Assembly: GCA_035529375.1 (NCBI GenBank)
Contig: DATKWU010000009.1
Span: forward strand, 223,124-287,123
From: Patescibacteria group bacterium
GTDB lineage: Bacteria > Patescibacteriota > Microgenomatia > PFEM01 > JAHIFH01
Direction: 5' to 3'
Length of the DNA: 64,000 nucleotides
The position numbers and the translations under genes are program-made. Position 1 is the stretch's first letter; every line of letters begins with the position of its first letter. The notes under the pieces were generated by a model. The model had not been told where the DNA came from. It saw only the letters and a list, made by a program, of their open reading frames with translations, and did no database searches. This document shows positions 367 to 61,758 of the stretch, one piece after another.

Positions 367-1005
367 TCAATTCGTTTTGGAATAATAAATCGTTCTTGTT
401 TGTTTCGTTTTTCTGCCTATTCGATTAGTCGCTTCGATAACAATCTTATTTTCCCCACTCGTCAACCTTAAACGATAGCTAAATTTTCCTTCTTCATCAA
501 GTTGAGTCAAGCGACCATTAATGGTCACGGAATTATCTGGATCAGTTCCTCCTTCAATTAAAACTTCTTCATTAACAATTTTTTCATTATCGATTGGCGA
601 ATAAACTTCTAATCTTGGCTTTCCCAATAAACTGTGGTATTGATAACCCAAGTAAGTTAAGAAAATGATAATAAACAAAGCGACAAGGGAAATCAAAGTC
701 TTTCTTGGACTCCAACGAAATTGTTTGTTGAGACTTTCTCCAGAAGGCAAAACCAGTTTTTGCTCTTGTGTCCGCTGGTAATCTCGCCTAAAAACAGCCA
801 ACACTCGATCAGGTTCAAGACCCAAATACTGGGCGTAATTCCGAATAAAACCTCGGTTGGTAGTGATCGAAGGGAAGAATTGATATCTATCTTTTTCTAA
901 AGCAATTAAATATTGCTTCCGAATTTTAATTTCCTGGGCAATTTCATCAAGACTAAGCCCCTTTTTCTTTCTTTTTTCTCTAAGAATTTGGCCGGCCGTT
1001 TTCAT
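367..1005 (-). CDS. RodZ-like cytoskeleton/XRE-family HTH membrane protein
   Basis: N-terminal HTH (LSLDEIAQEIKIRKQYLIALE), a single TM (LISLVALFIIIFLTYLGY) and an extracytoplasmic C-terminal domain, as in RodZ. Start moved to the internal Met (MKTAGQ...) to avoid overlapping the ftsK stop; the ORF track gives 367..1038. Confidence 0.5.
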   Translation of the reverse strand: MKTAGQILREKRKKKGLSLDEIAQEIKIRKQYLIALEKDRYQFFPSITTNRGFIRNYAQYLGLEPDRVLAVFRRDYQRTQEQKLVLPSGESLNKQFRWSPRKTLISLVALFIIIFLTYLGYQYHSLLGKPRLEVYSPIDNEKIVNEEVLIEGGTDPDNSVTINGRLTQLDEEGKFSYRLRLTSGENKIVIEATNRIGRKTKQTRTIYYSKTN

Positions 1006-1009
1006 TTTT

Positions 1010-3082
1010 TTATTGTTGGGAGACAACTTGAGAGGCAAGATATTCTTCAGGATCTTTAATTAGAACTTCTCGGGGTTTTGAACCTTCAGCCGAACCAACA
1101 ATACCAACTCTTTCTAATTGATCAATAATTCTGGCTGCTCGGGCATAGCCAACTTTCAAACGCCGCTGGAGTAAAGAGGCCGAAGCCCGTTCATAGCGAC
1201 AGACTGTCCGAACCGCATCATCAAAGAGTTCATCTCTTTCTTGGATTTCACCACCTATCACCGTTCCTGCTTTAGTTGGCATTTTGGTTACTTCCTCAGT
1301 GTATTGAGGAGCAACACCGGCTTTTTTAAGAAAACCAATTAATTTCTGAATTTCTGGTTCAGAAACAAGGGTTCCTTGAATTCGTGTTGGTTTAGCTTGA
1401 TCTGGAGGAATATAGAGCATGTCACCTCGTCCTAAAAGTTTCTCTGCTCCCGGCATATCAATAATCACTCTCGAATCAACTTGAGAAGAAACATTAAAAG
1501 CAATTCTGCAGGGAATATTAGCTTTAATCAAACCCGTAATCACATCGACCGAAGGCCGCTGGGTAGAAATAATTAAATGGATACCGGTAGCTCGGGCCAT
1601 TTGGGCAATTCGACAGATAACGTCTTCGACTTCGGCCGGAGCAAACAACATAATATCAGCCAATTCATCAATAATAATTAGAATATAGGGAAGAGCTGAA
1701 AAACCTGAAAGTTCATTGTAGGCATCAATGTTCCGCACTCCTACTTCAGCAAATAATTTATAGCGACGTTCCATCTCGGAAATAGCCCACTTTAAAGCCG
1801 AAATCACTTTTTCTGGATCAACAATTACTGGGGTTAACAAATGAGGAATCCCATTATATTGGGTTAATTCCACTCGTTTAGGATCAACTAGGATGAATTT
1901 GACTTCAGCTGGAGAAGCTCTAAAAAGGATGGCAGCAATAAAAGAGTTAATACAAACTGACTTGCCTGAACCAGTGGCGCCAGCGATAAGAACATGAGGC
2001 ATTCGGTTAATATTATCTACCACTGAATCACCAGAAACATTCAGACCTAGAGGTATCGTCAGTCTGGATTTAGCTTTTTCCATTTGATCTGAAGTTAACA
2101 TTTTCTTGAGAGTCACAAATTCAGGACTTCGGTTAGGCACTTCAATCCCCACTAACGAGCGTCCAGGAATTGGAGCTTCAATTCTAATTTGACCAGTCGG
2201 CGCTGCCAAAGCTAAAGCTAAATCATTAGCTAATGTAGTAATCTTAGAAAGTTTCGTTCCTAAAGCAATTTCCAAAGCATATTGAGTCACGGCCGGCCCA
2301 AGATTAACCTCAGCCACTCGAGCGGCCACGCCAAAGGACTCTAAAGTCTTCTCAATGAGATCAGCGTTCTTTTTAATATCACCCCGGTCGGCTTTACCAC
2401 TAACAGAATCAGCTAAAAGAGATAAAGGCGGAAATTCCCAAACGCCTTCCTCGGCAGGCAAATTAGTCACCAAAGAGGACGTTAATTCTTCTTCCCTCTT
2501 TTGTGATTCTGATTTAACGGCTTCTTTTGACCCTCCACTTCTAATTTCTAAATCCCCTGTCGCTAATTGACGACGGCTAGAAACCTTTTTAAGACCAGCG
2601 CTCAATTGGCGAATTCTGGTAATAAATTTCATTAAAAAGAGAACGATTTCTTCTAAAGAAGTATTAAAAACCACGACAAAACCAATAAAAACAAAACCCA
2701 TTAAAACAAAGAAGGCACCAAAAGCACTAATTAAACCAGCTAGTTGATACCAAATTTGGGAACCAATCAAACCCGTTCGAGTTAAACTGATAAGAGCAAT
2801 CGCTAAAACAACGGAACCAACAAAAACGTTAGGACGAGTGATTCGCCAGCGCAAGCGGGCCATCATCAAGCCTGCTGTCATTAAAAGAAAAGGCAAAAGA
2901 ACTGCTCCCCAACCAAAATAATAAATAAAGACTTGAAATAATTTTGTCAGTAATGTCCCTTGGCGGGAAAAAGAAAAGACAATAATTGCAGCCAAAGAAA
3001 AGAGAAAAACACTGGAAATCGTATAAAGAGTGTCCTTTTTTAGGTTTAATTTAAATGGTTTTTTTCTTCTGCCTCTGGCCAT
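1010..3082 (-). CDS. ftsK: DNA translocase FtsK/SpoIIIE
   Basis: 690 aa; N-terminal polytopic membrane region; Walker A GATGSGKSVCIN; FtsK alpha/beta motor; C-terminal gamma winged-helix (LLQRRLKVGYARAARIIDQLE). Confidence 0.9.
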   Translation of the reverse strand: MARGRRKKPFKLNLKKDTLYTISSVFLFSLAAIIVFSFSRQGTLLTKLFQVFIYYFGWGAVLLPFLLMTAGLMMARLRWRITRPNVFVGSVVLAIALISLTRTGLIGSQIWYQLAGLISAFGAFFVLMGFVFIGFVVVFNTSLEEIVLFLMKFITRIRQLSAGLKKVSSRRQLATGDLEIRSGGSKEAVKSESQKREEELTSSLVTNLPAEEGVWEFPPLSLLADSVSGKADRGDIKKNADLIEKTLESFGVAARVAEVNLGPAVTQYALEIALGTKLSKITTLANDLALALAAPTGQIRIEAPIPGRSLVGIEVPNRSPEFVTLKKMLTSDQMEKAKSRLTIPLGLNVSGDSVVDNINRMPHVLIAGATGSGKSVCINSFIAAILFRASPAEVKFILVDPKRVELTQYNGIPHLLTPVIVDPEKVISALKWAISEMERRYKLFAEVGVRNIDAYNELSGFSALPYILIIIDELADIMLFAPAEVEDVICRIAQMARATGIHLIISTQRPSVDVITGLIKANIPCRIAFNVSSQVDSRVIIDMPGAEKLLGRGDMLYIPPDQAKPTRIQGTLVSEPEIQKLIGFLKKAGVAPQYTEEVTKMPTKAGTVIGGEIQERDELFDDAVRTVCRYERASASLLQRRLKVGYARAARIIDQLERVGIVGSAEGSKPREVLIKDPEEYLASQVVSQQ

Positions 3083-58353: not shown

Positions 58354-59988
58354 TTACATTCCCATACCGCCACCCATGCCGCCACCTTGAGGCATAGCAG
58401 GGATTTTTTCTTCTTTTTCCGGAATATCAGTCACTAAACCTTCTGTCGTCAAAATCATGGTTGCCACCGAAACCGCATTCTGGAGAGCAGTCCTAGTCAC
58501 TTTCACTGGATCAATGATACCGGCCTTGATCATATCGACATATTCACCGGTTAAAACATTAAAGCCAATCCCCTTACCTTTTCTCTTAATGTTGGCCACA
58601 ACCACGCCACCATCAGCCCCTGCGTTCTCAGCCAGCAATTTTGTGGGTGATTCCAAAGCCTTCCCAATAATTTCAGCACCCGTCAATTCGTCTCCTTTTA
58701 ATCCTTCAGTTTTAATTGCTTTGGCCGCAGCCAGTAAGATGACACCACCACCAGGAACAATTCCTTCTTCAATAGCAGCTTTAGTGGCAGCGACCGCATC
58801 TTTAACTCTTTCTTGTTTTTCTTTCATTTCTGTTTCTGAAGCTGCACCGACTTCAATCACGGCTACTCCACCAGTTAATTTAGCCAATCTCTCTTCCAAC
58901 TTTTCTTTATCAAATTCCGAGGTAATTCGGTCTAATTCTCTTTTAATCTGTTTTATCCTGCCTTCAATTATTCTTTTTTCTCCTTTACCACCAACAATCA
59001 CGGTTTTATCTTTATCAGCCGTGACTCGATCGGCTCGACCTAAATCTTCAACCGTTACTTCCTCAAGTTTTCGACCAATATCTTCAGAGATGACCGTTCC
59101 ACCAGTCAAAATAGCAATATCTTCAAGCATTTCTTTCCTACGATCGCCAAAACCCGGCGCTTCAACAACTAAGACATTAAAAGTACCGCGGAGCTTATTA
59201 ACAATGATGGTTGCTAAAGCTTCACCATCAACTTCATCAGAAATGATAATCAAATTCTTAGAAATTTTAACTAGATTCTCAAGAAAAGGTAAAAGTTCTT
59301 GAAGCGAAGAAATCTTTTTATCGGTTAAAAGAATATAGGGGTCTTCAATTGTTGCTTCCATTGTGTCTGGATTAGTCACAAAATAAGGAGAAGTGTAGCC
59401 TTTGTCAAATTCCATGCCCTCTTTGTAATCGATTACCAATTCCAAGCCCTTACCTTCCTCGACGGTGACGACACCGTTAGGACCAACTTTTCTCAAAGCT
59501 TCAGTGATTTTCTCGCCAATTTCTTGATTTTGAGCGGAAATGGTGGCCACCTGAACAATTTTTTCGCTGTTATCTTTAACTGGTTGAGCCTGTTTCTCGA
59601 TTGATTTGACCGCTTGTTCTGCTGCTTTTTCAATTCCCTTATTTAAAATCATTGGATTGGCTCCAGCGGTAATGTTTTTAATACCCTCTTCAACAATGGC
59701 TTGGGCAAGAATTGTGGCTGTGGTTGTCCCGTCTCCAGTCACATCATTAGTTTTTTCAGCCGCCTCTTTAATCAATTGAGCTCCCATATTCTCAAAAGGA
59801 TCTTCAAGCTCAATTTCTTTGGCAACAGAAACACCATCATGAACCACCGAAGGAGCTCCCCATTTTTTATCCAAGGCAATATTCCGACCTTTAGGACCAA
59901 GGGTCGTTCCCACTGCCTTGGCTACAGCATCAATGCCTTTTTTTAATTTTTCCCTGGCTTCAGCTGAATATTTAAGTTGTTTTGCCAT
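58354..59988 (-). CDS. groL: Chaperonin GroEL (Cpn60)
   Basis: 544 aa; canonical GroEL sequence including [12 protein letters not shown] and C-terminal GGM repeats. Confidence 0.97.
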
Positions 59989-59990
59989 TT

Positions 59991-60287
59991 TTAGTTAACA
60001 ATTGCCAAAACGTCTTCAAACTTAACAAAAATCAATTCTTTACCAGAAAGACCTAATTTAACTTCATCGCCACCCCATTTTTTGTAAATTACGGTCTGAC
60101 CGACTCTAAATTCAGGTTTAATTTCTTTGCCGGAATCGGTTGTTTGAGGAGCGCCAATAGCGATCACTTTACCCCGTTGAGATTTTTCATCATGAGTATC
60201 GGGAAGAACAATACCAGTAGAGGTTCTTTTTTCCGCTTCCACTGGTTCAATTAAAGCATAACCGGCGGTTGGTTTAAGTTTGGGCAT
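59991..60287 (-). CDS. groS: Co-chaperonin GroES (Cpn10)
   Basis: Start set at [15 protein letters not shown] (98 aa); the ORF track's longer 113-aa version starts at 60332. Confidence 0.9.
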
Positions 60288-60341
60288 TGATGTTTTTTTA
60301 TTTGATTTCGTCATCTCGGTGAATCTTAGCAAAAAAAATTA

Positions 60342-60402
60342 TCACTTTCAAGTGACGATCGCTATTCTAAATACTGATAACAAACTTGTCAAGAGCTAAT
60401 TA
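60342..60402 (-). promoter_or_regulatory. groES promoter (TTGACA-N17-TAGAAT) and a 14-bp palindrome TCACTTTCAAGTGA in the leader; no canonical CIRCE
   Basis: -35 is the reverse complement of 60397-60402, -10 the reverse complement of 60374-60379; palindrome at 60342-60355. Confidence 0.5.
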
Positions 60403-60432
60403 AATAGATTATCATTATCCTGAAGATGCGGA

Positions 60433-60600
60433 AGAAATTGCTCTTTTGGCATTTCAGGTTTCATCGAGGCGGGTGTTGAGAGTAAAAGATGTCTTCTCTC
60501 GAAAGAGGTTAAAGTAATGCTCCATGGCCGAGCATTACGGGAAGCTTTAACCTTCCACAAGAGAAACAAAATTTACTCTCTTTCCTCCCCCGCCTCTTTT
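60433..60600 (+). ncRNA. Candidate structured RNA (multi-helix junction closed by long-range stems); possible sRNA or riboswitch-like leader
   Basis: GAGGCGGG (60466-73) pairs with CCCGCCTC (60589-96); GAGAGTAAA (60478-86) pairs with TTTACTCTC (60572-80). These enclose three hairpins (TCTC-GAAA-GAGG; TAATGCTC-CATGGCC-GAGCATTA; GGAAG-CTTTAAC-CTTCC), followed by TTTT. Plus-strand promoter-like TTGTCA-N18-TATCAT at 60397-60426. Confidence 0.35.
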
Positions 60601-60720
60601 CATAATTATCCCATAGTATTGACTTTTGCCTTATTTTATAGTATACTGCCCCAGCTTTCTCAGGGAAGCACTTTTCATTCTTGCGCACCTATCATGGAGA
60701 AAATCACCAAGGAGGAAAGA

Positions 60721-60936
60721 ATGTCTATTCTCAATTGTGTCACCTGTCTCCTTGTACTTGGAACAGCTGTTTTTCTCTCAAAGGTGAGAGGAAAAAGGAG
60801 CATGGCGTTCCTTATCCTAGCCGGCTTTATTCTTCTCATCGCTCTGCTGAATAGTGGCGATTTTTTGATAAAAGTCGGCGAGTTGAGCCAGTCGGCTGGC
60901 AACTTCATACTAGGTGTCAGCCAAAAAGTACCATAA
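60721..60936 (+). CDS. Small membrane protein (72 aa, 2 TM)
   Basis: Strong SD AAGGAGG 6 nt before ATG 60721; promoter-like TTGACT-N17-TATACT at about 60620-60650. The ORF track's 139-aa version starts upstream at 60517. Confidence 0.4.
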   Translation: MSILNCVTCLLVLGTAVFLSKVRGKRSMAFLILAGFILLIALLNSGDFLIKVGELSQSAGNFILGVSQKVP

Positions 60937-60962
60937 GCAATCCGCGCAAGAATGGAAAAGAA

Positions 60963-61060
60963 AGGCCTGTTAGAGGTAGAGATCTGGGTCAAAAGGCGCA
61001 GCAATATATAATTCATCATATATTGAACCCAGATAACTATCTCAGCAGGCCTCTTTTCTT
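60963..61060. terminator. Long imperfect hairpin closed by AGGCCTG/CAGGCCT and followed by TCTTTTCTT; bidirectional terminator between convergent genes
   Basis: Stems at 60963-69 / 61045-51 plus inner GAGATCTGGGTC / GAACCCAGAT..CTC pairing; T-run 61052-61060. Confidence 0.45.
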
Positions 61061-61074
61061 GGTTAAAAAAGGAA

Positions 61075-61758
61075 TTATTTCAAAATATTGTAAGCAGTCC
61101 AGATAATAATTAAGCCACCAATCATCACAAAAACCCAGTCTTTAAAGTTTATTTTTCTTATCCCTTTTCTAAAAATCTTGATGATTTTATAAACAAACCA
61201 GCCTAGAATTATTAAGGTGGTTGGCCAGGTAATTAAATCAACAAAAATCTCGACTTGGTGTCGGTAATTGCCTAGAAAATAACCTACTGATCCCCAAATT
61301 GAAACCCAAAAAATAATCGAGAAACTAATAAAAATTAAATACTTTTTATAGGGAACACCTAAAACTCCAGCCGCGGTAGAAACAAAAGTCGCAAAAGAAG
61401 GAATGACATGACCAAAAAAGAGAGCCTTTTTATTATACTTCTTCATGAGTTCCTCACCTTTTTTCAATCCCTTATCCATTCCCAACCAAAGAAGAAAACG
61501 ATACCAACCATATTTCCCCAAAAAATAATTAAGATTATCACCAATAAACCAACCAATAACAGCCAAAATTAAAACATAAGGCAGAGAAAGAATTCCTTGG
61601 CGGGCGTAAAAAGTAGCCAAGAGAACAATAAAGGTTCCTGGTACTTGCCAAGAAAGACCAAAAATTGTTTCTAGAATAGAAAAAAGAAAAACAAGAGGAT
61701 AACCGTAAACGACGTAATATTGTTCAAAAAAGGCAATAATCTCTGTACCCGAGGGCAT
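61075..61758 (-). CDS. DedA-family membrane protein
   Basis: 227 aa; DedA/SNARE-associated signature (FIGDNLNYFLGKYG; G-rich re-entrant helices). Confidence 0.65.
   Translation of the reverse strand: MPSGTEIIAFFEQYYVVYGYPLVFLFSILETIFGLSWQVPGTFIVLLATFYARQGILSLPYVLILAVIGWFIGDNLNYFLGKYGWYRFLLWLGMDKGLKKGEELMKKYNKKALFFGHVIPSFATFVSTAAGVLGVPYKKYLIFISFSIIFWVSIWGSVGYFLGNYRHQVEIFVDLITWPTTLIILGWFVYKIIKIFRKGIRKINFKDWVFVMIGGLIIIWTAYNILK

Follow-up and report, generated by a model that had tools for sequence, protein, structure and literature searches.

A long hairpin rod between two plus-strand promoters beside groES: a candidate terminator in a Patescibacteria genome

The structured sequence between groES and a small membrane-protein gene in this Patescibacteria genome is a real, very stable and strongly structured element, but it was wrongly described as a four-way RNA junction, and its assignment to the riboswitch candidates was mistaken too. 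The element is a single imperfect hairpin of 131 nt and ~46 bp, here called the rod (60466-60596, plus strand; coordinates are those of the window, the whole 64-kb stretch of DNA that was analysed). The rod is not a member of any Rfam family and is best filed as a lineage-specific terminator-type rod. We tentatively propose that it is the 3′-terminal terminator and insulator hairpin of a vestigial transcription unit divergent from groES, a reading whose chances we put slightly short of even.

Between groES and a small membrane ORF on the plus strand there is a gap of 433 bp, and the element lies inside it. On one side of this gap are groEL (58354-59988, minus strand) and then groES (59991-60287, minus strand); on the other, convergent with the small membrane ORF, is a DedA-family gene (VTT domain, PF09335 VTT_dom; 61075-61758, minus strand). 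Our comparison set consisted of 164 related groES loci, 1.19 Mb in total, including 80 loci from GTDB and 80 from JGI metagenomes. The window belongs to a Patescibacteria genome of Microgenomates/Shapirobacteria type, and its nearest groES loci are those of Patescibacteria MAGs. Among the GTDB representatives and JGI metagenomes, which do not include the source species, the nearest relatives have a best GroES identity of 94-95 %. The ENA and Logan contigs of the source organism are identical across the region, so there is no population variation usable for covariation.

Folding with ViennaRNA yields the same single rod as the minimum-free-energy (MFE) and the centroid structure, with an energy of -53.4 kcal/mol and a mean pair probability of 0.94. 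Its helices are perfect runs of 8, 9, 3, 6, ~10 and 7-9 bp with asymmetric internal loops and a 6-7-nt bulge between them, and its apical loop is CAUGGCC. The two long closing stems of 8 and 9 bp on which the original prediction was built are both exact in the sequence: the basal stem GAGGCGGG/CCCGCCTC at 60466-60473 and 60589-60596, and a second stem GAGAGTAAA/TTTACTCTC at 60478-60486 and 60572-60580. Three hairpins had been placed inside these stems. One of them, the apical 9-bp hairpin GTAATGCTC/GAGCATTAC (60514-60522 and 60530-60538), is likewise exact and is kept in the rod, whereas the GAAA-tetraloop and GGAAG hairpins have a pair probability of ~0.00, because GGUUAAAG/CUUUAACC and UUCUCU/AGAGAA pair across instead. 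The four-way junction itself reaches -44.4 kcal/mol, or -46.8 kcal/mol when enforced, and is therefore 7-9 kcal/mol worse than the rod.

The stability of the fold is exceptional for its composition. None of 200 dinucleotide shuffles folds as well on either strand (z = -4.95 for the plus strand and -6.45 for the minus strand), and in a GC-regressed ranking of structure among 140-nt stretches of the 64 kb the element comes first on the minus strand and second on the plus strand. The rod folds better on the minus strand than on the plus strand (-59.4 vs -54.6 kcal/mol), and G.U pairs are found at two isolated positions only, none of them inside the helices. GC content is 0.46 for the 140-nt stretch at 60462 and 0.33-0.41 nearby; the element does stand above its flanks, as had been claimed, but the figure of about 50 %, far above background, was an overstatement. 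The U-run reported after the 3′ closing strand is present as TTTT at 60597-60600, within a U-rich tail, UUUUCAUA (60597-60604, 5 U in 8 nt), that lies directly 3′ of the GC-rich basal helix.

Upstream of the rod, two divergent promoters share a quasi-palindromic -35 element, which reads, as the original prediction had it, TTGACA on the minus strand for groES and TTGTCA on the plus strand. The groES promoter, TTGACA-17-TAGAAT (60364-60392, minus strand), has 11/12 consensus matches and is invariant in the related loci L003, L004, L005 and L007. In the other direction TTGTCA is followed at 18 nt by the -10 element TATCAT, giving a promoter with 10/12 consensus matches that we call P(+) (60386-60415, plus strand) and from which transcription would start near 60421-60424. 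The presence of a plus-strand promoter upstream of the element was thus rightly recognized; it matches the consensus and is conserved in relatives along with the first ~60 nt of the transcript region. This stretch includes a leader core, AAGAAATTGCTCTTT (60432-60446, plus strand), for which the relatives' consensus is AAGAAwTyGCTCTTT.

P(+) and the leader core are conserved in at least six related Microgenomates-type genomes, where the promoter takes the form TTGTCA-17-TATAAT in L087 and L091, with the -10 element TATCAT in L162 and TACAAT in L003. The sole match of a relatives-only profile in the 64 kb is 60386-60446 (E=2.4e-6), and when the window is aligned with L114, L162, L003, L157, L091 and L087 from the -35 to the first codons, the -35, -10, core, SD and start codon all line up. 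Judged by this profile and alignment, the P(+) promoter-leader segment is orthologous between the window and its relatives. For the window transcript, a small 5′ hairpin GAAAUUGC...GGCAUUUC (60434-60455, plus strand) is predicted by both the MFE and the centroid structure; what relatives have in common here is the sequence core alone, not the fold.

The next plus-strand gene, which the element had been thought to serve, has a promoter of its own. TTGACT-17-TATACT (60619-60647, plus strand), a strong sigma-70 consensus promoter conserved in relatives, stands between the rod and the membrane ORF and is followed by a leader (60654-60686, plus strand) consisting of a 6-bp tetraloop hairpin (60654-60669) and then the invariant UUUCAUUCUUGCGC. 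Promoter and leader show ~70-80 % identity in L003/L085, L004/L088, L005/L090, L086/L089, L087 and L091, and the leader hairpin (6-7 bp) is retained in seven species with differing stem sequences. In several species the invariant UUUCAUUCUUGCGC can alternatively pair with the hairpin loop and 3′ strand. As a candidate for cis-regulation of the membrane ORF, this promoter-leader region (60619-60690) is preferable to the rod.

The small membrane ORF that had been reported downstream does exist (60721-60936, plus strand; SD AAGGAGG 7 nt upstream), with 71 rather than 72 aa. We place its start at 60721 because the SD and the relatives support it. A 139-aa call beginning at 60517 in the ENA and Logan contigs is a spurious N-terminal over-extension, and an 80-aa NCBI call is an N-terminal over-extension as well; such calls carry the membrane ORF upstream across rod, promoter and leader (window 60517-60936). 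The 71-aa ORF is an orphan among 5.8 billion proteins, its sole database match being an NCBI MAG protein labelled ‘Patescibacteria group bacterium’. The membrane ORFs that stand behind this leader in the window, L005, L003, L086, L087 and L091 are mostly without evident similarity, and a 96-aa membrane ORF in L005 (3445-3735, minus strand) by eye resembles that of L087. A conserved expression signal here precedes a variable small ORF.

These observations bear directly on the proposal that the element is a ligand-sensing leader of the 71-aa membrane protein, for instance one that senses Mn2+ in the manner of yybP-ykoY. A small membrane protein is indeed encoded downstream, the element is strongly structured, and its 3′ arm may alternatively pair with the RBS. 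However, the fold is a rod and not a junction, and a conserved promoter lies between it and the ORF. Locus L005 has this promoter with its leader and a small membrane ORF, all without a rod. The conserved intervening promoter and leader, together with the rod-less L005, indicate that the membrane ORF has a transcription unit to itself, from which the rod is excluded. Moreover, the downstream membrane ORFs show no evident homology between most species, and neither the stems nor the interior of the element are conserved in relatives; lack of conservation of the paired segments was the outcome that the original prediction itself had named as its refutation.

Comparison with the proposed class leads to the same conclusion. 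The yybP-ykoY riboswitch (RF00080) is a four-helix junction with conserved L1/L3 sequences. The likeness of our element to it is one of loose context alone, namely a position upstream of a small membrane protein, and the element differs from it in its rod fold, in the absence of the conserved loop sequences, in the promoter that precedes the ORF and in having no covariance-model match: RF00080 is unmatched even at E<=10 (60300-60760), and no Rfam family fits. Given the intervening conserved promoter and leader, the rod-less L005 and the lack of an Rfam fit, the riboswitch reading is unsupported and largely refuted already; we consider it scarcely credible, and a false riboswitch lead is thereby removed.

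Searches for other known RNA families were also negative. Rfam at the gathering threshold gave no match at the element and only a tRNA elsewhere in the whole window, an E<=10 scan of 461 nt (60300-60760) gave sub-threshold chance matches only, and Rfam on six related loci gave tRNAs only. The L13-Bacteroidia leader (RF03127), the one low-E match of that scan, was rejected at 22.2 bits vs a gathering threshold of 38, with a 5-bp helix missing and a membrane ORF, not rplM, downstream. We also rejected a generic cis-regulatory 5′ leader (the rod lies outside the promoter-to-start interval of the membrane ORF and has no homologue in the 164 loci), 6S RNA (no central bubble and no Rfam match) and SRP RNA, RNase P and tmRNA (no Rfam match). 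RNAalifold found no consensus structure in MAFFT alignments of the rods or of the second leader, because MAFFT misaligned the sequences, and structures were therefore compared sequence by sequence.

If the rod does not serve the membrane ORF, its place is best understood from the P(+) unit of the related genomes. There, the promoter and leader core are followed by an SD with its start codon, then by a small, very basic ORF, and finally by long hairpins, one to three in number. The start codon that follows the leader core and SD opens a very basic ORF of 37-76 aa, which we treat as a putative coding sequence. Such ORFs are seen in L114 (7700-7800, minus strand), L162, L091, L087, L003 and L086; they are rich in R, K and P, some of them end in ...ERRGGPRG, and gene finders almost never call them. 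They belong to no Pfam or NCBIfam family, and a profile search of 5.8 billion proteins with them returned one protein only. Between L114 and L162, 3/114 positions differ within the ORF (2 of them synonymous) and 12/110 differ upstream, which hints at real coding of the ORF in these two loci. The low divergence suggests that the ORF is real in relatives and has therefore been lost in the window.

What aligns with these start codons in the window is the ATG (60489) of a mini-ORF of 7 codons, MSSLERG* (ATG TCT TCT CTC GAA AGA GGT TAA; 60489-60512, plus strand), which lies inside the 5′ arm of the rod. We infer that the ORF collapsed to 7 codons here, by loss in the window rather than by gain in the relatives. 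One could also imagine a translation-coupled attenuator, in which ribosomes on the mini-ORF melt the rod and permit read-through into the membrane ORF, while the untranslated rod terminates. In favor of such a role are the GAGAG 6 nt upstream of the mini-ORF, the alignment of its ATG with real start codons of relatives, and its location wholly within the 5′ arm. We consider this very improbable, however: helices with a pair probability of at least 0.9 sequester its SD and AUG, the downstream gene has its own conserved promoter, ORF and rods do not overlap in relatives, and the mini-ORF is more simply a remnant.

The hairpins of the related units occupy the position equivalent to that of the rod. 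They follow the ORF, one to three of them, directly before the second promoter, or, in L114 and L162, before the convergent DedA-family gene. These rods are 67-135 nt long and contain 15-46 bp; for eight of the nine, z lies between -3.2 and -6.8. Their 5′ strands are rich in G and their 3′ strands in C, their tails are U/C-rich, and several of them share a common base, GGGGUUGrGAG...CUCyCAACCCC, around unrelated interiors. The window rod matches them in position, shape, polarity and tail. Each of the nine is more stable on the P(+) transcript strand, by 3-11 kcal/mol, and the window rod is the only one that folds better on the opposite strand. At the level of sequence, the window rod was not matched by relatives-only nhmmer profiles of the 5′ base and the 3′ base, nor was it found by blastn-short with six relatives' rods, and we therefore claim no sequence homology for it. 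By eye, GGGTGTTGAGAGTAAAAG of the window resembles GGGTTGAGAGTCAAGG of L114. In L091 (617-991, minus strand) three rods stand in tandem, two of which have a common base GGGGTTGGGA...TCTCAACC and unrelated interiors.

The architecture of the relatives' rods, with a conserved base, a variable interior and a place beside non-homologous small ORFs, is reminiscent of the attC sites of integrons. attC core sites read 5′ RYYYAAC...GTTRRRY 3′ at the hairpin base. In the relatives' rods the core triplets are reversed (5′ GTTGrGA...TCyCAAC 3′), and we reject attC because of this reversed order. Further differences from attC are that a conserved promoter belongs to the small ORFs themselves, that the inspected window region shows no integrase, and that the window rod is without the relatives' base, GTTGAGA occurring at 60475-60481 on the 5′ side only.

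We thus favor, with the reserve stated at the outset, the reading of the rod as a terminator and insulator. RNA polymerase would bind the shared -35 in the plus orientation and start near 60422, and the transcript would contain the conserved core and then the rod. Termination is expected at the 8-bp basal helix GAGGCGGG/CCCGCCUC under the rod, in which seven of the eight pairs are G-C and which is followed directly by the U-rich UUUUCAUA. Because the window ORF has only 7 codons, the unit would yield an ORF-less RNA of ~180 nt (roughly 60422-60602) that is mostly rod and ends in it. In such a unit, the rod would keep RNA polymerase from reading through into the next promoter, 20 nt downstream, and occluding it, and would protect the 3′ end of the transcript. 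Both transcription from P(+) and termination at the rod are inferred; the rod does stand where the conserved P(+) unit would end, as do the rods of relatives.

In several respects the rod resembles intrinsic terminators. It has a GC-rich base and then a U-run (the T-run rule holds here), it stands at the end of a short unit, its polarity is G-rich 5′ and C-rich 3′, and it lies immediately before the next promoter, with a second long hairpin that is a terminator candidate 350 nt away. Typical intrinsic terminators are far shorter than 131 nt. The rod, with ~46 bp and five internal loops or bulges, is several times longer and falls outside the compact-hairpin format (loop 3-8 nt, stem of at most ~20 bp), and termination at it is a prediction. 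The rod was missing from the output of a consensus terminator scan, because the interior closed by its basal helix measures ~100-115 nt. Should it work as a terminator, it would exemplify unusually long hairpins that insulate back-to-back promoters in a very small genome.

The second long hairpin (60954-61059) is 106 nt long with ~37 bp and z = -5.8; an A-run precedes it and a U-run follows it. Flanked by the small ORF and the DedA-family gene, which converge on it, this hairpin ends, like the rod, in GCCUCUUUUC, and is likely a bidirectional terminator. Medium-length hairpins are seen in terminator positions elsewhere in the genome.

Several findings weigh against the terminator reading. The rod shares with the relatives' rods only position and shape. 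Its preference for the minus strand and its scarcity of G.U pairs are more in keeping with a DNA palindrome of recent origin than with an RNA under long selection. Furthermore, in L005 the groES promoter and the second promoter abut, and window 60395-60607, rod included, has no counterpart; with the whole unit missing there, the unit must be dispensable. These same findings raise the alternative that the rod is a lineage-specific palindromic insertion (a MITE, an element of the Rickettsia palindromic type or an inverted duplication that arose de novo) whose RNA serves no selected function, which landed between the P(+) leader core and the next promoter and whose terminator activity would be incidental. 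We judge this origin unlikely, though a serious contender.

An insertion would account for the rod sequence having no homologue in the 164 related groES loci (1.19 Mb), for the direct joining of both promoters in L005, for the GC content above that of the flanks, and for the better minus-strand fold with no G.U inside helices, in which the rod is unlike all relatives. The rod is an inverted repeat over its full length and is flanked by direct repeats, TTTCAT (60459-60464 and 60598-60603), one nt from each rod end, and ATTATCC (60414-60420 and 60605-60611), which are short and AT-rich. A comparable hairpin-rich insertion of 108 bp is present in the unit of L086 (~695-805, minus strand) and is not found in L157 and L089; it is flanked by a direct repeat of GTGTTATTA and separates the -10 of the groES-divergent unit from the leader core. 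With the flanking repeats, and with such insertions in this unit in other genomes, a recent palindromic insertion or inverted duplication is a serious candidate for the rod's origin.

The insertion reading is opposed, on the other hand, by copy number. Pattern search and blastn found the rod once in the window plus 20 kb of flanking sequence (84 kb of the source contig), and blastn found no copy in phage or plasmid records. Four IMG/VR pattern scans gave two matches, both chance matches in coding regions, and no protein among 5.8 billion resembles the frame that crosses the rod. Neither the 84 kb nor the related loci nor the collections of phages, plasmids and viruses thus showed the multiple copies of MITE-like families. 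ERIC/IRU, Correia/NEMIS, RUP and Rickettsia palindromic elements are defined by many dispersed copies. The rod is like them in being 100-150 bp long, palindromic throughout, intergenic near promoters and foldable as RNA, and also in its absence from an otherwise syntenic relative and its short flanking direct repeats; it is unlike them in that the 84 kb contain a single copy and the 1.19 Mb of related loci contain none.

Sequence details also count against an insertion. The two arms differ by whole blocks that form internal loops, not by scattered point mismatches, and AT-rich repeats of 6-7 bp could arise by chance, CTTTTCAT recurring at 60671. Finally, rods are found at the same place in other relatives, so L005 is more simply explained by a deletion. 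The readings overlap in part, because an inserted palindrome can serve as a terminator.

The predicted ORF-less transcript also invites the reading that it is a stand-alone trans-acting small RNA of ~180 nt, made up of the conserved 5′ core plus the rod. Such an RNA would have its own promoter and a terminator-like 3′ end, and the leader core is conserved between genomes despite the loss of the ORF in this one. It could act through the conserved core AAGAAAUUGCUCUUU, or else through the CU-rich, anti-SD-like CUCUUUCCUCC (60578-60588), which would pair with the membrane-ORF RBS GGAGGAAAGA (60711-60720); complementarity to the RBS region extends over 19 nt at 79 %, with 10 contiguous bp. CU-rich 3′ strands pair with any GA-rich RBS, however, so this match is expected from composition. 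The anti-SD stretch is moreover buried in or beside the rod helices, and the relatives have the core within the 5′ UTR of an ORF, where a role in cis is indicated. We therefore regard a trans-acting RNA as improbable. A type I toxin-antitoxin pair was rejected, as the candidate RNA lies in tandem rather than antisense and the pairing is explained by composition.

On a broader view, the groES-divergent P(+) unit could be an undescribed transcript family of Microgenomates-type Patescibacteria, whose members would have the conserved 5′ core AAGAAwUyGCUCUUU and, at the 3′ end, one to three rod-like hairpins, with a small basic peptide as an optional part. The window unit, as a member without an ORF, would then show the RNA itself (core plus rod) to be the functional part, and might be a small RNA tied to chaperone or envelope-stress expression, its promoter being physically coupled to that of groES. 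We regard this reading as a whole as improbable. If functional, the ORF-less transcript would be one of few small-RNA candidates in the Candidate Phyla Radiation (CPR); a literature search on CPR terminators or small RNAs returned nothing relevant.

Taken across genomes, the groES-DedA interval in this Patescibacteria clade is a fast-evolving mosaic, in which promoters, the short leader core and the second leader hairpin are kept and the ORFs and long hairpins between them turn over. In L091, farther upstream than its three tandem rods (1200-1400, minus strand), a promoter-like unit TATAATTCC-GGAAGAATTATCGAGGTACAAAGTACCGC is present in two to three tandem copies. On the groES side, an inverted repeat TCACTT-GAA-AGTGA (60342-60355) lies between the -10 and the SD in the minus-strand 5′ region of groES and is followed by eight A/T (60329-60336). 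The sequence does not fit CIRCE (TTAGCACTC-N9-GAGTGCTAA), which we rejected as the groES operator. At least 12 related species have the repeat unchanged or almost unchanged, and it looks like a repressor operator for groESL.
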